A DNA stretch of 64,000 nucleotides. It comes from a phage. A program made the translations under genes and the position numbers. This document shows positions 37,796 through 43,273 of the stretch, one piece after another (positions within the stretch are counted from its first letter, which is position 1; each line of letters begins with the position of its first letter). Location: the sequence record PZ445432.1, one strand, 5' to 3'. The notes beneath the pieces are model-generated. The model was given only the letters and a program-made list of their open reading frames with translations. It did no database searches and was not told the origin of the DNA.

Positions 37796-39258
37796 ATATC
37801 GCTGGCCTGTTCACCTGTTGAATTTTCAGTTTTATCTTTCTTAGCACGTTTAGATTGAGCTGGCTTATCCTTTTCAATAGGGATAATGAACTCAGCTTCC
37901 ATTTGAGATATATCTTCCATTGCTAGGTTGGTAGTGTTATCCATCCGCAGAGTTTCCCAGTTCATCTTAGGCATAAACTTCACGCTACCAGAAGAACGGG
38001 TCTTAACGAAGTCAAACATAATAGCACCTTGACCATTATCAGCTTTTGCAGCATTAAGATTAGCAGCCATGTCTGCGGAATCAAGAATCCCCTTTGACAT
38101 ACGTGTTCTACCATCTTGATCGATCTGGTAAGGAGCTACGCCAGCCACGTTATGTTTCTGGCAGATAGATTTGAAAGACGAGCTAACAACCATCTGTTCT
38201 TTCCAGTCATACATATCAATGGTTTTAGAATCTGGAAGTCGGGTTTGGTTAATATAGTCAAGTAAAGCTACTGTAACCTTATCCCCATATCTAGCAACTA
38301 ATTTATTTAACTCTACGTCAACTGTTGTAATAGACAGCTCAGGGTCATAAACAATAATCATAGGAGTATGTAGCTCATATCCTTCTATTAGCTTACTTTC
38401 CATATCGTAGAAATCACTCATCTTAGCCATTGTGTACTGTTTAACGAAGTTATCGAAAAGCTCTTCACCACCATTAAACATTCTAGCTCTAGTTCTGGCT
38501 AATCTCAACAGAGCTGCACCTTCTAGAGTATTATTACGCATTGCTAATGCTGATACACCAGCTAACATGGCTAGATTACGTCTAAATACTTCATGTTCTT
38601 TCATCTCAATTGAGAAGTATGGAGCAATATCCCCATTCAAATATTGCTGAACCTGTATGTTTGAACAGATAATGGATTTACCAGTACCACGCCAACCACC
38701 AAGCAGTAACGTTTCTGTGCGAGCTAAACCAATTTGAGCGTCGAACTCATTACAAATACCAAGAGCGATTAAATTCAGTTTGGTATCTTCTTCTCTCTGG
38801 AAAATACGCATGTTATCTGCGTTGAATACTTTCCCAGTATTCGTTACTTTCTCTTCTAATTTTAAGTGAAGGGAGGCAACTCGGTTAAGAATTTCTCCCT
38901 GATCCAGCATTGTTAAATCTTGAAGCACGTCTGTTTCTAGAAGCTTCAGGAATAAATCCTGTGTATACTCGGCCTCTAGGACTTCAAGTGCCTGTTCCAT
39001 GCTAACTTCTGGAATTTGAGTGTTAGCTAAAACGACTAGAGCTTGAGAAAGGCGGGCGTTCCTATTAGCCTCAAGCATCAGTGCGTCAATGGACGGCATT
39101 GTGTTATATTTTTTATAATAATTCTGGACGGCTTGGTAAATTGAGGAGAAAGCGTCATTAAAATGATCTTTATGCAGTTTTGAGAATGTTTCCAATGCTA
39201 TTTGCTTCTGTTCGGAAGCTAGAAGCATCTTCAACACTACAGCTTGCACGTTAAACAT
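37792..39258 (-). CDS. replicative DNA helicase (DnaB-like)
   Basis: 488 aa; Walker A GGWRGTGKS and RecA-like C-terminal domain. Confidence 0.8.
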   Translation of the reverse strand: MFNVQAVVLKMLLASEQKQIALETFSKLHKDHFNDAFSSIYQAVQNYYKKYNTMPSIDALMLEANRNARLSQALVVLANTQIPEVSMEQALEVLEAEYTQDLFLKLLETDVLQDLTMLDQGEILNRVASLHLKLEEKVTNTGKVFNADNMRIFQREEDTKLNLIALGICNEFDAQIGLARTETLLLGGWRGTGKSIICSNIQVQQYLNGDIAPYFSIEMKEHEVFRRNLAMLAGVSALAMRNNTLEGAALLRLARTRARMFNGGEELFDNFVKQYTMAKMSDFYDMESKLIEGYELHTPMIIVYDPELSITTVDVELNKLVARYGDKVTVALLDYINQTRLPDSKTIDMYDWKEQMVVSSSFKSICQKHNVAGVAPYQIDQDGRTRMSKGILDSADMAANLNAAKADNGQGAIMFDFVKTRSSGSVKFMPKMNWETLRMDNTTNLAMEDISQMEAEFIIPIEKDKPAQSKRAKKDKTENSTGEQASDI

Positions 39259-39832
39259 TATTTAGCAACTCCTCTGTAAAGTTATCCGCTATATTCTGCG
39301 GTTTAACCCTCTCTATATCTAGAGCATCTAGGGCTGCGAAATCTCCGTACAAGGCTAAAAGCAGCTTATCTCTATACCACAGAGCTTCTCCTAGAGTTTT
39401 TAGGGTTTTTCTAAATACTTTGGAGTTTTTAGATATGGTTACTTTAAATGTGTTATTTTTTGTTACTTCTATGTTACGAATGCCTAGCTTGTTACCTATA
39501 AAGCTATTAGCGGAATTTTGAGAGGAAGTAACTTCACGTAAGTTATTCCAAGTATTATCAGTTTTAATTCTATTTTTATGATCAACCTTGTCAGGGATTT
39601 CTCCTTCCATATATAGAAAGGCCCACCTATGCGCTCCCATAGATTTTTGTATACCTGACTCTAAGGTTATCTTTATGTAAATATAGCCTGATGAATGCAT
39701 ATAGCCTGCAGGTTTGTTAGCGTGCTTAGCATTGAACGCAGGATTATTTTCTCTAGGTAGCCAGTAGAAATTTCCAGTATCAGGCTCATATCTTAATAAT
39801 GTTTTAAGATACTGCTGGGTAATCTCCCCCAT
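39251..39832 (-). CDS. HNH-AP2 homing endonuclease
   Basis: VDHKNRIKTDNTWNNLR plus a C-terminal AP2-like segment. Confidence 0.7.
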   Translation of the reverse strand: MGEITQQYLKTLLRYEPDTGNFYWLPRENNPAFNAKHANKPAGYMHSSGYIYIKITLESGIQKSMGAHRWAFLYMEGEIPDKVDHKNRIKTDNTWNNLREVTSSQNSANSFIGNKLGIRNIEVTKNNTFKVTISKNSKVFRKTLKTLGEALWYRDKLLLALYGDFAALDALDIERVKPQNIADNFTEELLNNV

Positions 39833-39891
39833 TATGTAGCCTTCTAATATACAAGAAAGGAGAACCGAAGTTCTCCTTATCTGCCTTCTAA

Positions 39892-40659
39892 TTATTCAGC
39901 AGCCGCAGCTTTTGCATCCAGTTTAGCACGCTTAGCGGCACCATCATAGTCCTTAGCAACCAGACCACGACGAGACAGCATAGATTTAACACCGCGCTCA
40001 GACTTACCAGTTTTCTCAGCGATCTCAGCAACAGTCATGTTAACCAGATCCAGACCTTCTAACAGATCTTCACGAGTTTTAGCACTTGAGGTTTCCTGTA
40101 CCGGCATAGCAGCGATACGACCTTCACGAAGCAGACTCAGAGCTTTACCACGGATCTGTTTGATATTACGACCGAAGTGAGCAGCGATAGCTTCAATAGT
40201 AGCCCCAGCAACAACCTGATTAACAAAGTCAGTTTCTTCATCCGGAGTGAAGGAACGAACAGCAGCAGTTTTTTCGGTTGGTTTAACAGAAGCGGTCATT
40301 TCCAGACTCAGGATCTTACCCTGTACCTGTTTAGCACCGAACTGACCACCAGCCACAGCAGCAGCGATTTCAGCATAAGTATACTGACCAGCATGAGCGT
40401 TCAGGAAATCAACCAGTTCAGCTTCCTGCTCAGGAGTCCACGGGGATTTCTGTACTTCGTTAGCTTTCTGTACTTCAAAACCTTCTTTACGCAGTTTAGA
40501 GCCAACAGAGCGAGCAGTAACATCTTTGCCAGTTTCAGCAGCCAGTTCAGCGGCGATAGCAGCTACTTGTTCTTGAGAGATTACATCAACACCCAGAGCA
40601 GTGGCTTTTGCTTTCAGAGACTCGGTTACACCTTCTACGTTCCAGTTCAGTTTAGACAT
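39892..40659 (-). CDS. DNA-binding protein (T5 D5-like)
   Basis: 255 aa; Ala/Lys-rich repeated modules; strong high-expression codon bias. Confidence 0.5.
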   Translation of the reverse strand: MSKLNWNVEGVTESLKAKATALGVDVISQEQVAAIAAELAAETGKDVTARSVGSKLRKEGFEVQKANEVQKSPWTPEQEAELVDFLNAHAGQYTYAEIAAAVAGGQFGAKQVQGKILSLEMTASVKPTEKTAAVRSFTPDEETDFVNQVVAGATIEAIAAHFGRNIKQIRGKALSLLREGRIAAMPVQETSSAKTREDLLEGLDLVNMTVAEIAEKTGKSERGVKSMLSRRGLVAKDYDGAAKRAKLDAKAAAAE

Positions 40660-41434
40660 TATTATTTTTCTCCAATAGTTCTTTAATCGACAGGATTTCT
40701 ATCCCATTCGTTTCGGCTTTCTTATAAGATGAGGAAGAACGCTTCGATTCATCCTCACAGATTAGGTATTTGACGTCTTTGGTAACGGATTTCTTAACCG
40801 TATATCCTAGACCTTCTAAATAGTTTGTTGCATCCGTTCTATTTGCAAAATCTTGCAAAGATCCGGTAATACATACCGCGATTCCATTTGGCTGGGCAGC
40901 TAATTCATCCGTAGTGATAATATTAGCTTTAGTGCCCTTAATACCAGTTGAGAATTTCCACGGTAGTTCGATAACATCCTTGCCTTGTGGGGAATTTAGC
41001 CAGGCTTTGTAATTTTCTCCAGCCTTGCCGTCAGCCTTCACATCATGGAAGCTAGTGCAATTTTGGGATAATTTCTTTGCTGCAACCTCTCCAATTAGAG
41101 GGATTCCTAAAGAACCGAGAACTGAACCAAAGTCAATGTCTCCGCGAACTTTAGTATTTAATTCGCTAGTTAACTTAGCGGCAACCTTGCTACCCACGGC
41201 TCTAACCAAATCTTCTTCGGTTAGGTAAAATAGTTCTGAAATCTTCGTCAGCTCCAGCTTCTCAATAGTTTTTGGGCCAAAGCCCTTTAACTTCATTTTT
41301 GAACAGAAGTTCTCAATTAACTTGCTTGATTGCGCTGGACAGTTGGACTTATTACGACAGAATAATTGTCCGTTGACAAGATCTAGCTTAGAACCACAAG
41401 AGGGACATTGTGTTGGAATTTCGATTTTCATCAA
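40652..41434 (-). CDS. NAD-dependent DNA ligase, C-terminal part (Zn finger, HhH, BRCT)
   Basis: CPSCGSKLDLVNGQLFCRNKSNC zinc finger, HhH-type GIPLIGEVAAKKL, BRCT-like C-terminus. Confidence 0.8.
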   Translation of the reverse strand: MMKIEIPTQCPSCGSKLDLVNGQLFCRNKSNCPAQSSKLIENFCSKMKLKGFGPKTIEKLELTKISELFYLTEEDLVRAVGSKVAAKLTSELNTKVRGDIDFGSVLGSLGIPLIGEVAAKKLSQNCTSFHDVKADGKAGENYKAWLNSPQGKDVIELPWKFSTGIKGTKANIITTDELAAQPNGIAVCITGSLQDFANRTDATNYLEGLGYTVKKSVTKDVKYLICEDESKRSSSSYKKAETNGIEILSIKELLEKNNNV

Positions 41435-41461
41435 ATTTCTTCCTTATCAATTTATATAAAT

Positions 41462-41490
41462 ATTATAGCAAGTATTTAAGCATTTAGCAA
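41462..41490 (-). promoter_or_regulatory. early promoter TTGCTA-17-TATAAT inside the spacer between the two ligase genes
   Basis: hexamers read on the minus strand; leader ATTTATATAAATTGATAAGGAAG. Confidence 0.6.
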
Positions 41491-41633
41491 CTACAATTTT
41501 AATTAACTTTGCTTACCCTCGCCATAACTTTCTATCCCTCAACTGAATGATAATAGTATATACCTAAGCGGCGAAAATGTCAATAACCACTTTATAATTC
41601 CGATATGGTAGATGGGTAGCAAAGGGTTATGTA

Positions 41634-42605
41634 TTAATCGTATACTCGCTCTACTATGCACGGGATTACACCACCAGCACGAATCACTCGAATCTGGCAA
41701 CCGATCTCTAGATCGAGAGAGTTAATATAATCAACGTTATTAAGAGTTGCTTTAACAATTGTAGCATCATCAATAATTACCGGTTCAAAATAACCAACTG
41801 GAGTTACTTTACCCGAAGCCCCCACCTGCCATTCAACTTTAGTAAGAGTTGTAATCTCGCCTTCTTCATCCTCTTTAATAGCGAATGCTCCACGAGGGAA
41901 TTTATTAGTCCAGCCTTCACGGAAGAATTTGTTGTTATCATTAATACGAACAACTTTACCGTCCGTCGGAATCCATTTAAAGAAGGAACGCACATTAACA
42001 ACTGTTAAGAAGTTCTCATTCTCCAGCCAAAGCATATCTTTTAAGTATGATTCTGTAATACCTACAGATTCAGCAGAACACTGGATACCATATGCAACGA
42101 AGATTAAACCACCTTCCCCAATGCGTTGTACGAAATCATCACTATCTTTGAGGTTAATAGCACCAGAGGCAAAGTTACGTTTATTTTCTACTTCTTTTGT
42201 AATTAGAACTTCACCAGTTATTTGAGTAGGTACTTTTTGGGAAATCTTTTTAGGAATATTCAGCAATCTTACGTTGCTTGTGACATCATTCCCTAGAATA
42301 CCGTTACCACGAGTTAGTGCTTGAACAAATTCGCCGTTAATATACAGCAGAGAAATTGCACAACCATCTAACTTATCGGTTTCCACCTGACCTAAAGGAT
42401 TGAATGGTGGTTTATCACCACGGTTATAGTAAACTTTCTGTAAAGAATACATACGATATAGATGTGGAATATCACCCTTAGGCCCGATCTCTTCCTCTAA
42501 TGGGAAGCGTTTTACCAGACGATCATATTCTTCATCAGAGATTAAAGACATTCCCTGGTAATATGCTTCTTGGCAACGTTTAATAAAGTCTTTTACATTA
42601 GTCAT
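41634..42605 (-). CDS. NAD-dependent DNA ligase, N-terminal part (adenylation + OB domains)
   Basis: ETDKLDG KxDG adenylation motif; NAD-ligase Ia-like N-terminus. Confidence 0.8.
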   Translation of the reverse strand: MTNVKDFIKRCQEAYYQGMSLISDEEYDRLVKRFPLEEEIGPKGDIPHLYRMYSLQKVYYNRGDKPPFNPLGQVETDKLDGCAISLLYINGEFVQALTRGNGILGNDVTSNVRLLNIPKKISQKVPTQITGEVLITKEVENKRNFASGAINLKDSDDFVQRIGEGGLIFVAYGIQCSAESVGITESYLKDMLWLENENFLTVVNVRSFFKWIPTDGKVVRINDNNKFFREGWTNKFPRGAFAIKEDEEGEITTLTKVEWQVGASGKVTPVGYFEPVIIDDATIVKATLNNVDYINSLDLEIGCQIRVIRAGGVIPCIVERVYD

Positions 42606-42878
42606 TTATTCTGCCTCATAGTACGTGGGTTGTCTGGTAGATCCGTGCCACGTATAATTTTTGCAAAGATGCAAATATGTAGTTTTTACTAGCCTATCCG
42701 ATAATGGAGAGTATATTTCAGCTATTAATACTTCTTTTTCGTAATAAAGTGAAATCAGTTTATACCCAGCTCTAGTTTTAGTATACTTTTCCCCATTAAT
42801 CTTTTCCTCCCACATGAGTATGAGAGGCTGTCCGATATATGGAAAAGGTTTAAGTGTACTTATATGTATCTTTTTCAC
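42606..42878 (-). CDS. hypothetical protein (GTG start)
   Basis: 90-aa ORF with GAGAGGG RBS after a promoter-leader cassette. Confidence 0.45.
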   Translation of the reverse strand: MKKIHISTLKPFPYIGQPLILMWEEKINGEKYTKTRAGYKLISLYYEKEVLIAEIYSPLSDRLVKTTYLHLCKNYTWHGSTRQPTYYEAE

Positions 42879-42908
42879 TTTGCAACCCTCTCATTAATTT
42901 ATATAAAT

Positions 42909-42937
42909 ATTATATAACAAAACTGAGTTGAAAGCAA
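42909..42937 (-). promoter_or_regulatory. early promoter TTGCTT-17-TATAAT
   Basis: hexamers read on the minus strand. Confidence 0.6.
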
Positions 42938-42964
42938 ATACATTTATAAAGAAAAAGCCAAGAA

Positions 42965-43273
42965 CTAGGCATTCTTGGCTTTGAGTTCTTCAGCTCGTTT
43001 CTGTACTTCATGTAAAACCTCAGATTCGCTAAGAATCTGTGTAAACGCATAGAAAAGCTGTGATGTTGTTTCTAGGGTGTAAGGAAAAGAGAAGCCAGAT
43101 TTCGTTGGAAACCATTCATCATTAATATCAAGAAGCCAGTAACGAATACCCATGTATAGATTCCCACGAAATTCAGATACTGTTAATCTTACTTGTTCCC
43201 CCTCCCTCTCCCAAAGTATGATGGACTGGTCATCAACGTGTCCTTCATAGTTTTGATTTACCTGTTCGCTCAT
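42965..43273 (-). CDS. PC4-like ssDNA-binding protein
   Basis: VRLTVSEFRGNLYMGIRYWLLD...PTKSGFSFP matches the PC4/Sub1 core (compared from memory with the human PC4 motif). Confidence 0.65.
   Translation of the reverse strand: MSEQVNQNYEGHVDDQSIILWEREGEQVRLTVSEFRGNLYMGIRYWLLDINDEWFPTKSGFSFPYTLETTSQLFYAFTQILSESEVLHEVQKRAEELKAKNA

Follow-up and report, generated by a model that had tools for sequence, protein, structure and literature searches.

The window analysed here, the whole 64,000-nucleotide stretch of sequence record PZ445432.1, is from Escherichia phage HildyBeyeler (Bas33, Tequintavirus; 100% identity), where the two genes considered below carry annotations as subunits A and B of a ligase. 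The features of the locus are collected in Table 1. The reading frame of ligB differs from that of ligA, and the ligB stop codon overlaps the D5 start by 8 nt (ATGTCTAA, 40652-40659), which indicates a ligB-D5 operon, with ligB no stand-alone unit; D5 lies directly 3′ of ligB in every genus examined. The first-pass annotation had begun the C-terminal gene at 41434, leaving a spacer of 199 bp. This TTG is absent in Klebsiella, Pectobacterium, Providencia, and Proteus phages, whereas the ATG at 41431 is kept across genera, and with the conserved start placed there, ligB encodes 259 aa and the spacer is corrected to 202 bp (41432-41633).

Table 1. Features of the split ligase locus in the window, in order of transcription.
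Feature	Position	Strand	Remarks
Terminator-like hairpin	42954..42982	-	12-pair stem, then TTCTTTAT; T-run; closes upstream transcription unit
T5 early-type promoter TTGCTT-17-TATAAT	42909..42937	-	Leader TATAATATTTATATAAATT in common with P2; predicted driver of orf90-ligA
orf90, small gene	42606..42878	-	phrog_35018; stop codon abuts ligA ATG
ligA, ligase subunit A	41634..42605	-	323 aa; short domain Ia, adenylation domain, OB fold
Non-coding ligA/ligB spacer	41432..41633	-	202 bp; 31% GC; stops in all three frames
Promoter P1 TTGACA-17-TATACT	41555..41583	-	Consensus match and conservation; predicted start ~41548
P1 leader	41499..41540	-	SD-like TTGAGGGA motif, then mini-ORF MARVSKVN (8 codons, 41499-41525)
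Promoter P2 TTGCTA-17-TATAAT	41462..41490	-	TG extended -10; ATATT discriminator; predicted start ~41455
ligB SD AAGGA	41441-41445	-	Precedes ligB ATG 41431
ligB, ligase subunit B	40652..41431	-	259 aa; Cys4 zinc finger, HhH, BRCT
D5, DNA-binding / transcription-factor gene	39892..40659	-	phrog_323
Terminator-like hairpin	39857..39878	-	9-pair stem, then TCTTGTAT; ends ligB-D5 unit

The adenylation and OB domains that had been assigned, together with the motif ETDKLDG, to the ORF ending at 41634 were recovered in LigA by Pfam matches to PF01653 (adenylation; 84.4 bits, cutoff 27) and PF03120 (OB; 78.4 bits, cutoff 32.9), and the motif I lysine within ETDKLDG is K78, which aligns to KVDG of the T. 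filiformis ligase. In the LigA family, the N-terminal domain Ia, with its NMN-binding residues, is the source of NAD+ specificity; in the phage protein, this domain gives a weak HMM match (2.5 bits), its YY..SDEEYD segment aligns with YRYY..SDAEYD of 1V9P, and the phrog_3869 alignment begins at model position 9. For the C-terminal part, the zinc finger and BRCT domain of the first-pass annotation stand and the HhH region is weaker: the LigB cysteines C9, C12, C25, and C31 are invariant in alignments of 13 and 23 sequences, PF00533 (BRCT) is matched at 32.8 bits (cutoff 21.3), and PF12826 (HhH) reaches 24.7 bits, under its cutoff of 27. The AF2 model of LigB (pLDDT 82) aligns with 2OWO over 175 columns (E=9.5e-7). 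Both products also match phage protein families almost end to end, LigA with phrog_3359 (1-325 of 325, E=1e-176) and LigB with phrog_3498 (1-255 of 256, E=2e-136).

Alignment to single-chain LigA confirms the breakpoint, as the two halves tile both TIGR00575 and E. coli LigA. On the TIGR00575 model, LigA occupies positions 63-378 (174.9 bits) and LigB positions 388-651 (106.6 bits), so that jointly they cover 63-651 of 652 positions; neither half reaches the equivalog cutoff of 444 bits, which refers to all domains on one polypeptide. E. coli LigA residues 284-390 are covered by the ligA product, and those from 402 onward by the ligB product, beginning with its zinc finger. Furthermore, ligA ends where the OB fold ends, ligB begins 8 residues before the first zinc-finger cysteine, and alignment of the junction with fused homologues reveals only a variable linker of 6-20 aa. 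The alignments thus place the break exactly in the variable linker between OB fold and zinc finger, with every domain apparently intact. Compared with single-chain LigA (E. coli 2OWO, T. filiformis 1V9P/1DGS), the HildyBeyeler ligase has the same domain order and the KxDG, DG..V, PR..A.K, and Cys4 motifs in common at ~25-30% identity. It differs in consisting of two polypeptides and in its total of 582 aa versus ~670, and this deficit of ~90 residues falls mainly in the domain Ia/adenylation interval and within HhH.

A split ligase of this kind is already known: it was reported for T5 in 2005, is routinely annotated, and is represented by a heterodimer structure. The T5 report is Wang et al. 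(2005, Virology 332:45), as cited in PMC1684257, and the two T5 proteins (AAU05253 and AAU05254) are cited in PMC3632103; our literature search on the split ligase returned only such citations of Wang et al. and no publication behind the structure. T5 LigA and LigB are orthologous to the HildyBeyeler pair (~95-96% nucleotide identity), with an identical arrangement of breakpoint, 202-bp spacer, and downstream D5, so that only strain-level substitutions separate the ligase genes. The structure, PDB 9HU3 (released 2026-01-14), is entitled 'PR1 phage heterodimeric DNA ligase in complex with 21-mer nicked DNA containing phage nick sequence', its depositors naming the enzyme 'DNA ligase (NAD(+))'. 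Both chains, of 339 and 248 aa, are separate in 9HU3 and 9I5I and come from Providencia phage vB_PreS_PR1, which shares the two-chain architecture at ~55-62% identity and has a gap of 192 bp versus 202 bp here. LigA matches 9hu3_A at E=6e-104 and LigB matches 9hu3_B at E=6e-81, the latter chain also being the best match of the LigB AF2 model. The physical A-B complex on nicked DNA is that of the PR1 homologue, whereas the HildyBeyeler pair is known from sequence; for the latter, we infer complex formation, subunit stoichiometry, and promoter activity in vivo.

More than 400 phage genomes of Demerecviridae have the split ligase, which was present in every genus sampled, namely Tequintavirus, Epseptimavirus, Sugarlandvirus, Novosibvirus, the Providencia and Pectobacterium phages, and Vibrio Ermolyevavirinae; among LigB homologues, the best 120 (identity down to 50%) each consist of a separate protein of ~250 aa. 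Both halves are under strong purifying selection (dN/dS 0.02-0.08 for ligA and 0.07-0.20 for ligB). Single-chain ligases are found in distant T5-like metagenomic phages (P0152, P0170, P0221, and others), where they measure 555-578 aa, show 34-40% identity over both halves, and join these by a linker of 6-20 aa that carries no internal promoter. They share the locus, with a D5 homologue directly after the ligase, and in L066, DnaB and primase also follow.

Promoters in the spacer were called by consensus match and conservation; a scanner at a loose threshold returned 14 promoter-like sites in the region versus 14.1 expected, that is, no overall excess. The early promoter and leader described by the first-pass annotation in the spacer correspond to P2 and hold up, although a second promoter, P1, had been overlooked. 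P2 belongs to the TTGCT-N18-TATAAT class, whose members have a common leader of the form ATnTATAAATTGA and which was found 14 times versus 3.5 expected, a count reached in none of 100 shuffles. P1 matches 11 of 12 consensus positions, a stronger consensus than that of P2, and is without the early-class ATATT discriminator (the discriminator rule for T5 early promoters is given in PMC7472727). Conservation of the P1/P2 pair upstream of ligB, 93-97 bp apart, extends from E. coli phages as far as those of Vibrio; P1 itself is conserved in Klebsiella, Pectobacterium, Providencia, Proteus, and Vibrio phages, and the SD-like motif of its leader is kept as far as the last of these. Independent transcription of ligB from these conserved promoters is therefore plausible.

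Several further candidates in the spacer were considered and rejected. The 8-codon mini-ORF after P1 is absent in Klebsiella, Providencia PSTCR5, Proteus, and Vibrio phages and was not retained as a gene. The P1-leader RNA of HildyBeyeler folds at -26.1 kcal/mol (z=-3.85); conserved RNA structure there was nevertheless rejected, as single-sequence folds from other genera were mixed (z -0.6 to -3.0) and RNAalifold over nine genera gave zero consensus pairs. The spacer is much more conserved than synonymous sites, but D5 and other promoter regions are conserved to the same extent, so that this was not taken to indicate a special element. Genus-specific hairpins over the P2 -35 element recur across genera and do not align with one another.

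Domain content, breakpoint, gene and promoter conservation, purifying selection, and the solved heterodimer of a homologue together lead us to read the locus, with a probability of roughly 90%, as encoding the heterodimeric NAD+-dependent DNA ligase that characterises T5-like phages (Demerecviridae). The two-subunit enzyme that the first-pass annotation had put forward as one option is supported by the A/B subunit annotation in hundreds of T5-like genomes, by the selection on both genes, and by the PR1 structure. Subunit A would supply the catalytic core, comprising the short domain Ia, the nucleotidyltransferase domain with Lys78, and the OB fold, and subunit B the DNA-clamping and accessory part with the Cys4 zinc finger, HhH, and BRCT; the two would assemble non-covalently around nicked DNA, much as single-chain LigA does. 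Two transcription units are predicted, in which the early promoter drives orf90-ligA and the tandem sigma-70 promoters P1 and P2 drive ligB-D5, with D5 probably coupled translationally to ligB. No terminator was found after ligA, so that read-through from the ligA unit probably reaches ligB as well.

How the split arose is a separate question, and one reading, which we regard as possible but less likely than not, is that it was selected because it placed strong promoters directly upstream of ligB-D5. Expression of D5 (and LigB) would thereby be uncoupled from the ligA unit, and the break would be tolerated owing to its position in an interdomain linker. Phages with a fused ligase (L064, L065, and L066) leave no room for a promoter between ligase and D5; no other feature of the gap in split phages is as well conserved as the P1/P2 pair, irrespective of what else has been inserted there; and the highest nucleotide conservation at the locus runs from the spacer through D5. 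On the other side, more distant split phages have a single promoter in gaps of 71-107 bp, and the reading is purely inferential.

A rather unlikely origin is that a free-standing homing endonuclease or another mobile cassette split a single-chain gene at the OB/zinc-finger linker and that its ORF was later lost in most lineages, the promoter, leader, and SD-like motif of the spacer being leftovers; this would be compatible with a functional heterodimer today. The first-pass annotation had raised such an insertion, and related phages include both a fused version, the ligases at the syntenic locus of distant metagenomic phages, and one with an endonuclease in the gap. This endonuclease is a GIY-YIG ORF (PF01541, 213 aa) lying exactly in the ligA/ligB gap of Salmonella phage SP3 and vB_Sen_SG_WM_RUS_R2, its ATG overlapping the ligA stop codon; additionally, the last ~170 nt of SP3 ligA are unusually diverged, a tract that resembles a co-conversion or target-immunity tract. 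Vibrio phages carry DprA-like and further ORFs in this gap and a Proteus phage carries a NADAR ORF, which marks the gap as an insertion hotspot, and a P1 with full leader and SD-like motif but no conserved ORF is what would be expected of a decayed cassette. A precedent is provided by Aeromonas phage Aeh1, in which nrdA is split by the homing endonuclease mobE (Friedrich et al. 2007; Crona et al. 2011, PMC3045599): its ribonucleotide reductase is likewise an essential phage DNA-metabolism enzyme encoded by two adjacent genes and reassembled non-covalently. In Aeh1, however, the endonuclease still lies between the halves and the interaction segments come from the mobile element, whereas the HildyBeyeler ligase has no endonuclease and no extra junction residues in the window.

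Further points tell against this origin. A gap endonuclease was found in only 3 of 438 related records, two of which are the GenBank and RefSeq copies of SP3; the ORFs that occupy the gap in Vibrio and Proteus phages yielded no homing-endonuclease domain; and the coding strand of the window spacer holds no ORF of at least 30 aa, thus no homing-endonuclease ORF, and no ORF remnant with a family match. As the GIY-YIG ORF lies upstream of the conserved P1/P2 pair rather than between the promoters, in a gap that the whole family already had, it appears to have arrived after the split and not to have caused it. Neighbor-joining trees of the LigB region are star-like; each bootstrap replicate contains 10 or more changes of state, without indicating whether split or fused forms came first.

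It is very improbable that recoding, an intron, an intein, or trans-splicing unites the two ORFs in one polypeptide, or that the gap is an assembly error. A gap of 189-202 bp is common to more than 400 independently sequenced genomes, which speaks against the assembly error at 41434-41634 that the first-pass annotation had considered. Fusion by splicing or frameshifting, considered there as well, finds no counterpart in the sequence: all three frames of the spacer are closed by stops, ligB lies in another frame and has its own SD and conserved ATG, extra residues at the junction are lacking, an Rfam scan of 40300-43000 (E<=1) returned no match, group I and II introns included, and no room is left for split-intein halves between the OB end and the zinc-finger cysteines. 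The two separate chains of the PDB homologue point the same way. Least probable of all, to a degree that makes it negligible, is that the halves are decaying remnants in a phage dependent on host LigA, for although ligA is annotated in two pieces in the relative IME178, both halves have dN/dS values far below 1, more than 100 protein clusters preserve the catalytic lysine, Cys4 zinc finger, and BRCT, and a homologous heterodimer has been crystallised on nicked DNA.

The split ligase of T5 is a textbook oddity of this phage family, and as a discovery the HildyBeyeler locus carries little weight; what is added is a modest comparative context, namely the fused relatives, the dual promoter kept from E. 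coli to Vibrio phages, and the endonuclease and other cargo in the gap. A broader and doubtful reading is that, in the wider radiation of T5-like phages, the ligase switched repeatedly between one-gene and two-gene forms, each time at the same interdomain linker, and that the split was kept for a dual-promoter module serving LigB and D5. If so, LigB and D5 would obtain their own level and timing of expression, P2 belonging to the early class and P1 to another. T5 virion DNA carries site-specific nicks, and nick sealing could then be tuned or switched off, for example sparing these nicks; alternatively, LigB could act apart from LigA. Taken together, the comparisons provide a clean natural system for studying the tolerance of an essential multidomain enzyme to being split, and for asking if gene fission can be driven by the regulatory requirements of the gene downstream.

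Over the 2.5 kb around ligA and ligB, the genes for ligase subunits A and B, the window is 100% identical to Escherichia phage HildyBeyeler (Bas33, MZ501074; Demerecviridae, Tequintavirus), where the two ORFs are annotated as 'NAD-dependent DNA ligase A subunit' and 'B subunit', and 92-97% identical to most E. coli and Salmonella T5-like phages among the matches listed (492 records). The split ligase described in the first-pass annotation is confirmed here with minor corrections. Its placement of the adenylation and OB domains with the KxDG motif in ligA holds, with Pfam matches to PF01653 (NAD-ligase adenylation, 84 bits) and PF03120 (OB, 78 bits), and with K78 in ETDKLDG aligned to the catalytic KVDG of the T. 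filiformis ligase. Of the zinc-finger, HhH and BRCT regions assigned to ligB, the first is borne out by C9, C12, C25 and C31, conserved without exception in two alignments, of 13 and of 23 homologues, and the last scores above its Pfam cutoff; the HhH match falls just short. Because the two halves tile both the LigA equivalog model TIGR00575 (positions 63-378 and 388-651) and E. coli LigA (residues 284-390, then 402 onward), the break, as judged from these alignments, falls in the OB/zinc-finger linker. Escherichia phage IME178 has an annotation that divides ligA into two CDS (501-1100 and 1112-1471 within L011 501-1471), which may reflect a frameshift, a nonsense mutation or a sequencing error. 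Salmonella phage rokbiter has a ligB 24 nt longer (804 nt; L009 1675-2478) with an annotated 32-bp repeat_region inside, and the extra length appears to be an in-frame duplication in a variable segment before BRCT.

Features of the ligA-ligB-D5 region (window coordinates unless a locus is named)
Feature	Position	Strand	Details
Early-type promoter for orf90-ligA	42937..42909	minus	predicted
ligA	41634-42605	minus	323 aa; PF01653 and PF03120 matches
ligA-ligB spacer	41432-41633	minus	202 bp; ATG 41431 taken as ligB start
P1	41583..41555	minus	TTGACA-17-TATACT; 11/12 consensus positions
P2	41490..41462	minus	TTGCTA-17-TATAAT; TG extended -10
ligB	start ATG 41431	minus	BRCT match; HhH just below cutoff; four invariant Cys
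ligB stop/D5 start overlap	40652-40659	minus	ATGTCTAA
D5 gene	39892-40659	minus	start overlapped by ligB stop
Terminator-like hairpin after D5	39878..39857	minus	predicted site
SP3 GIY-YIG ORF	L063 2699-3340		MG387042, also PQ002169; ATG overlaps ligA stop; own stop within conserved spacer

Splicing, frameshifting and assembly error had been named as threats to this reading, and all three can be dismissed. The spacer contains stops in all three frames, ligA and ligB lie in different frames, the spacer region matches no Rfam family at E<=1, and there is no room for intein halves because ligA stops where the OB fold stops and ligB starts 8 residues ahead of the first zinc-finger Cys. The same gap, 189-202 bp long, was present at all loci examined in Tequintavirus, Epseptimavirus and the Klebsiella, Pectobacterium and Providencia phages, which argues against an assembly error. 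The split also occurs in Sugarlandvirus, Novosibvirus and Vibrio Ermolyevavirinae, whereas among single-chain ligases of the phage collection the nearest come from jumbo phages and reach no more than about 28% identity. Strong purifying selection acts on both halves (dN/dS 0.02-0.08 for ligA and 0.07-0.20 for ligB), and their products match the two chains of PDB entries 9HU3/9I5I (E=6e-104 and E=6e-81), whose chain B has the sequence of Providencia phage vB_PreS_PR1 (100% identity). The title of 9HU3 (released 2026-01-14) reads 'PR1 phage heterodimeric DNA ligase in complex with 21-mer nicked DNA containing phage nick sequence'; its publication was not found in a literature search. When the window's LigB was modelled with AlphaFold (pLDDT 82), the structure that best matched the model was 9hu3_B. 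Subunit annotation, purifying selection and the matches to both chains of the heterodimer thus support the two-subunit enzyme proposed in the first pass. Such a ligase is already established knowledge: a 2006 paper (PMC1684257) terms the T5 ligase split, citing Wang et al. 2005, and later T5 literature names the genes ligA and ligB (PMC3632103, PMC4319617).

The ligB start had been placed at TTG 41434, with a 199-bp spacer; since ATG 41431 is the start that different genera share, the spacer measures 202 bp. The promoter reported there, P2, stands together with its conserved leader, and a second, P1, had been missed upstream. The TTGCT-N18-TATAAT class to which P2 belongs is enriched in the window (14 found against 3.5 expected; 0/100 shuffles reached 14) and shares an A-rich tract upstream, a leader downstream and an ATATT discriminator, which Klimuk et al. 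2020 (PMC7472727) report for all known T5 early promoters; P1 lacks this discriminator. Upstream of ligB, P1 (TTGACA/G-17-TATAMT) and P2 (TTGCY-17-TATAAT) lie 93-97 bp apart in E. coli, Klebsiella, Pectobacterium, Providencia, Proteus and Vibrio phages regardless of other gap content, and this predicted pair forms the core of the spacer; distant metagenomic relatives (41-46% identity; gaps 71-107 bp) have one promoter only. Downstream of P1 the SD-like TTGAGGGA leader is conserved; behind it no ORF is conserved across the genera compared. Behind the SD-like GAGGGA, the window has an 8-codon mini-ORF, MARVSKVN (41499-41525, minus), with two synonymous changes and N to S in phiR2-01, and absent or altered in Klebsiella, Providencia, Proteus and Vibrio phages. 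The HildyBeyeler P1 leader folds well (z=-3.85); no consensus RNA structure was found across genera. Hairpins or inverted repeats with the 3' arm over the P2 -35 occur in several genera (window 41499-41548, minus; relatives' loci L037, L040 and L057), 10 bp long in a Proteus phage, 12 bp in L040 and 8 bp in a Klebsiella phage, with differing sequences and no alignable consensus; in HildyBeyeler there is an AGCAA...TTGCT palindrome. Their role may be that of an operator or of a leader stem. The spacer is far better kept than synonymous sites (HildyBeyeler vs phiR2-01: pS 0.59 and 0.36, spacer difference 0.069), but this is not exceptional, as D5 and the promoter regions elsewhere show equal conservation.

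Because the ligB stop overlaps the start of D5, a DNA-binding/transcription-factor gene, and a terminator-like hairpin follows D5, the spacer promoters would serve a ligB-D5 operon, and the upstream early-type promoter would drive orf90-ligA. Read-through from ligA into ligB is likely, since the terminator scan placed no terminator-like site downstream of ligA. The upstream neighbour of ligA varies: orf90 (phrog_35018; 42606-42878, minus) in HildyBeyeler and T5, an unrelated 66-aa ORF in Epseptimavirus (window compared with L002, L009 and L010), and both in some phages, e.g., vB_EcoS_HZ_ZJUN2. D5 keeps 91-100% nucleotide identity between genera, well above adjoining ligA, which points to strong constraint at the level of codons or nucleic acid, or to recent exchange. 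An HNH homing endonuclease gene (PF13392; phrog_99; 39251-39832, minus) separates D5 from the DnaB-type helicase. It looks like a mobile insertion because the Epseptimavirus loci L035 and L029 lack it: identity there drops to 0-14% exactly over the ORF, with 96-98% on both sides.

In an exhaustive profile search, about 100 of the best 150 cluster representatives were stand-alone LigB-like proteins of about 250 aa, and about ten were compact single-chain ligases (555-578 aa) that align over the junction with just a short variable linker. A D5 homologue (38-43% identity) directly follows the single-chain ligase in 3/3 located on contigs, and in L066 the neighbours of the fused ligase also include a PC4-like gene, DnaB and primase, as in the T5 gene order. 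Distant T5-like phages therefore do have intact versions, for which comparison had been proposed, at the syntenic locus. Neighbor-joining trees of the LigB region intersperse fused forms with split ones, each fused ligase lying nearer a split LigB than another fused ligase. Repeated fission or fusion is suggested by at least 10 changes between the split and single-chain states in 100/100 bootstrap trees (at least 21 with shuffled labels); the trees are star-like and give no direction of change.

Extra genes gather between the ligA stop and P1, and this part of the gap is an insertion hotspot. Vibrio phages carry 1-3 there, a DprA-like protein among them; in Thalassa and Chloris this is a recombination-mediator gene (phrog_768; L003 3112-3672, L004 2804-3364), with one or two more small ORFs between ligA and the P1/P2-ligB block. 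A Proteus-type T5-like phage from IMG/VR has a NADAR ORF (PF08719, 110 bits; L056 2653-3309) between the ligase halves, possibly linked to NAD/ADP-ribose metabolism, and its gap is 801 bp vs 344 bp in the sister phage L057, which lacks the ORF. The endonuclease-interrupted arrangement sought in related phages does exist: Salmonella phages SP3 and vB_Sen_SG_WM_RUS_R2 (3/438 records) have a GIY-YIG homing endonuclease in the gap. In SP3 the P1/P2 block is identical to that of other Tequintaviruses, with both promoters intact, and about 170 nt at the ligA 3' end are strongly diverged, as expected near a homing endonuclease.

An origin of the split in a mobile endonuclease cassette, the other option of the first pass, is plausible but unproven. 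It fits the SP3 endonuclease, the hotspot behavior of the gap and the ORF-less P1 leader, and has a precedent in the Aeh1 nrdA/mobE genes-in-pieces; however, the endonuclease is rare and sits in a pre-existing gap upstream of the conserved promoter block. Alternatively, the break may have been retained since it places strong promoters before ligB-D5, a reading favored by the fused-ligase phages, in which no space is left for a separate D5 promoter.
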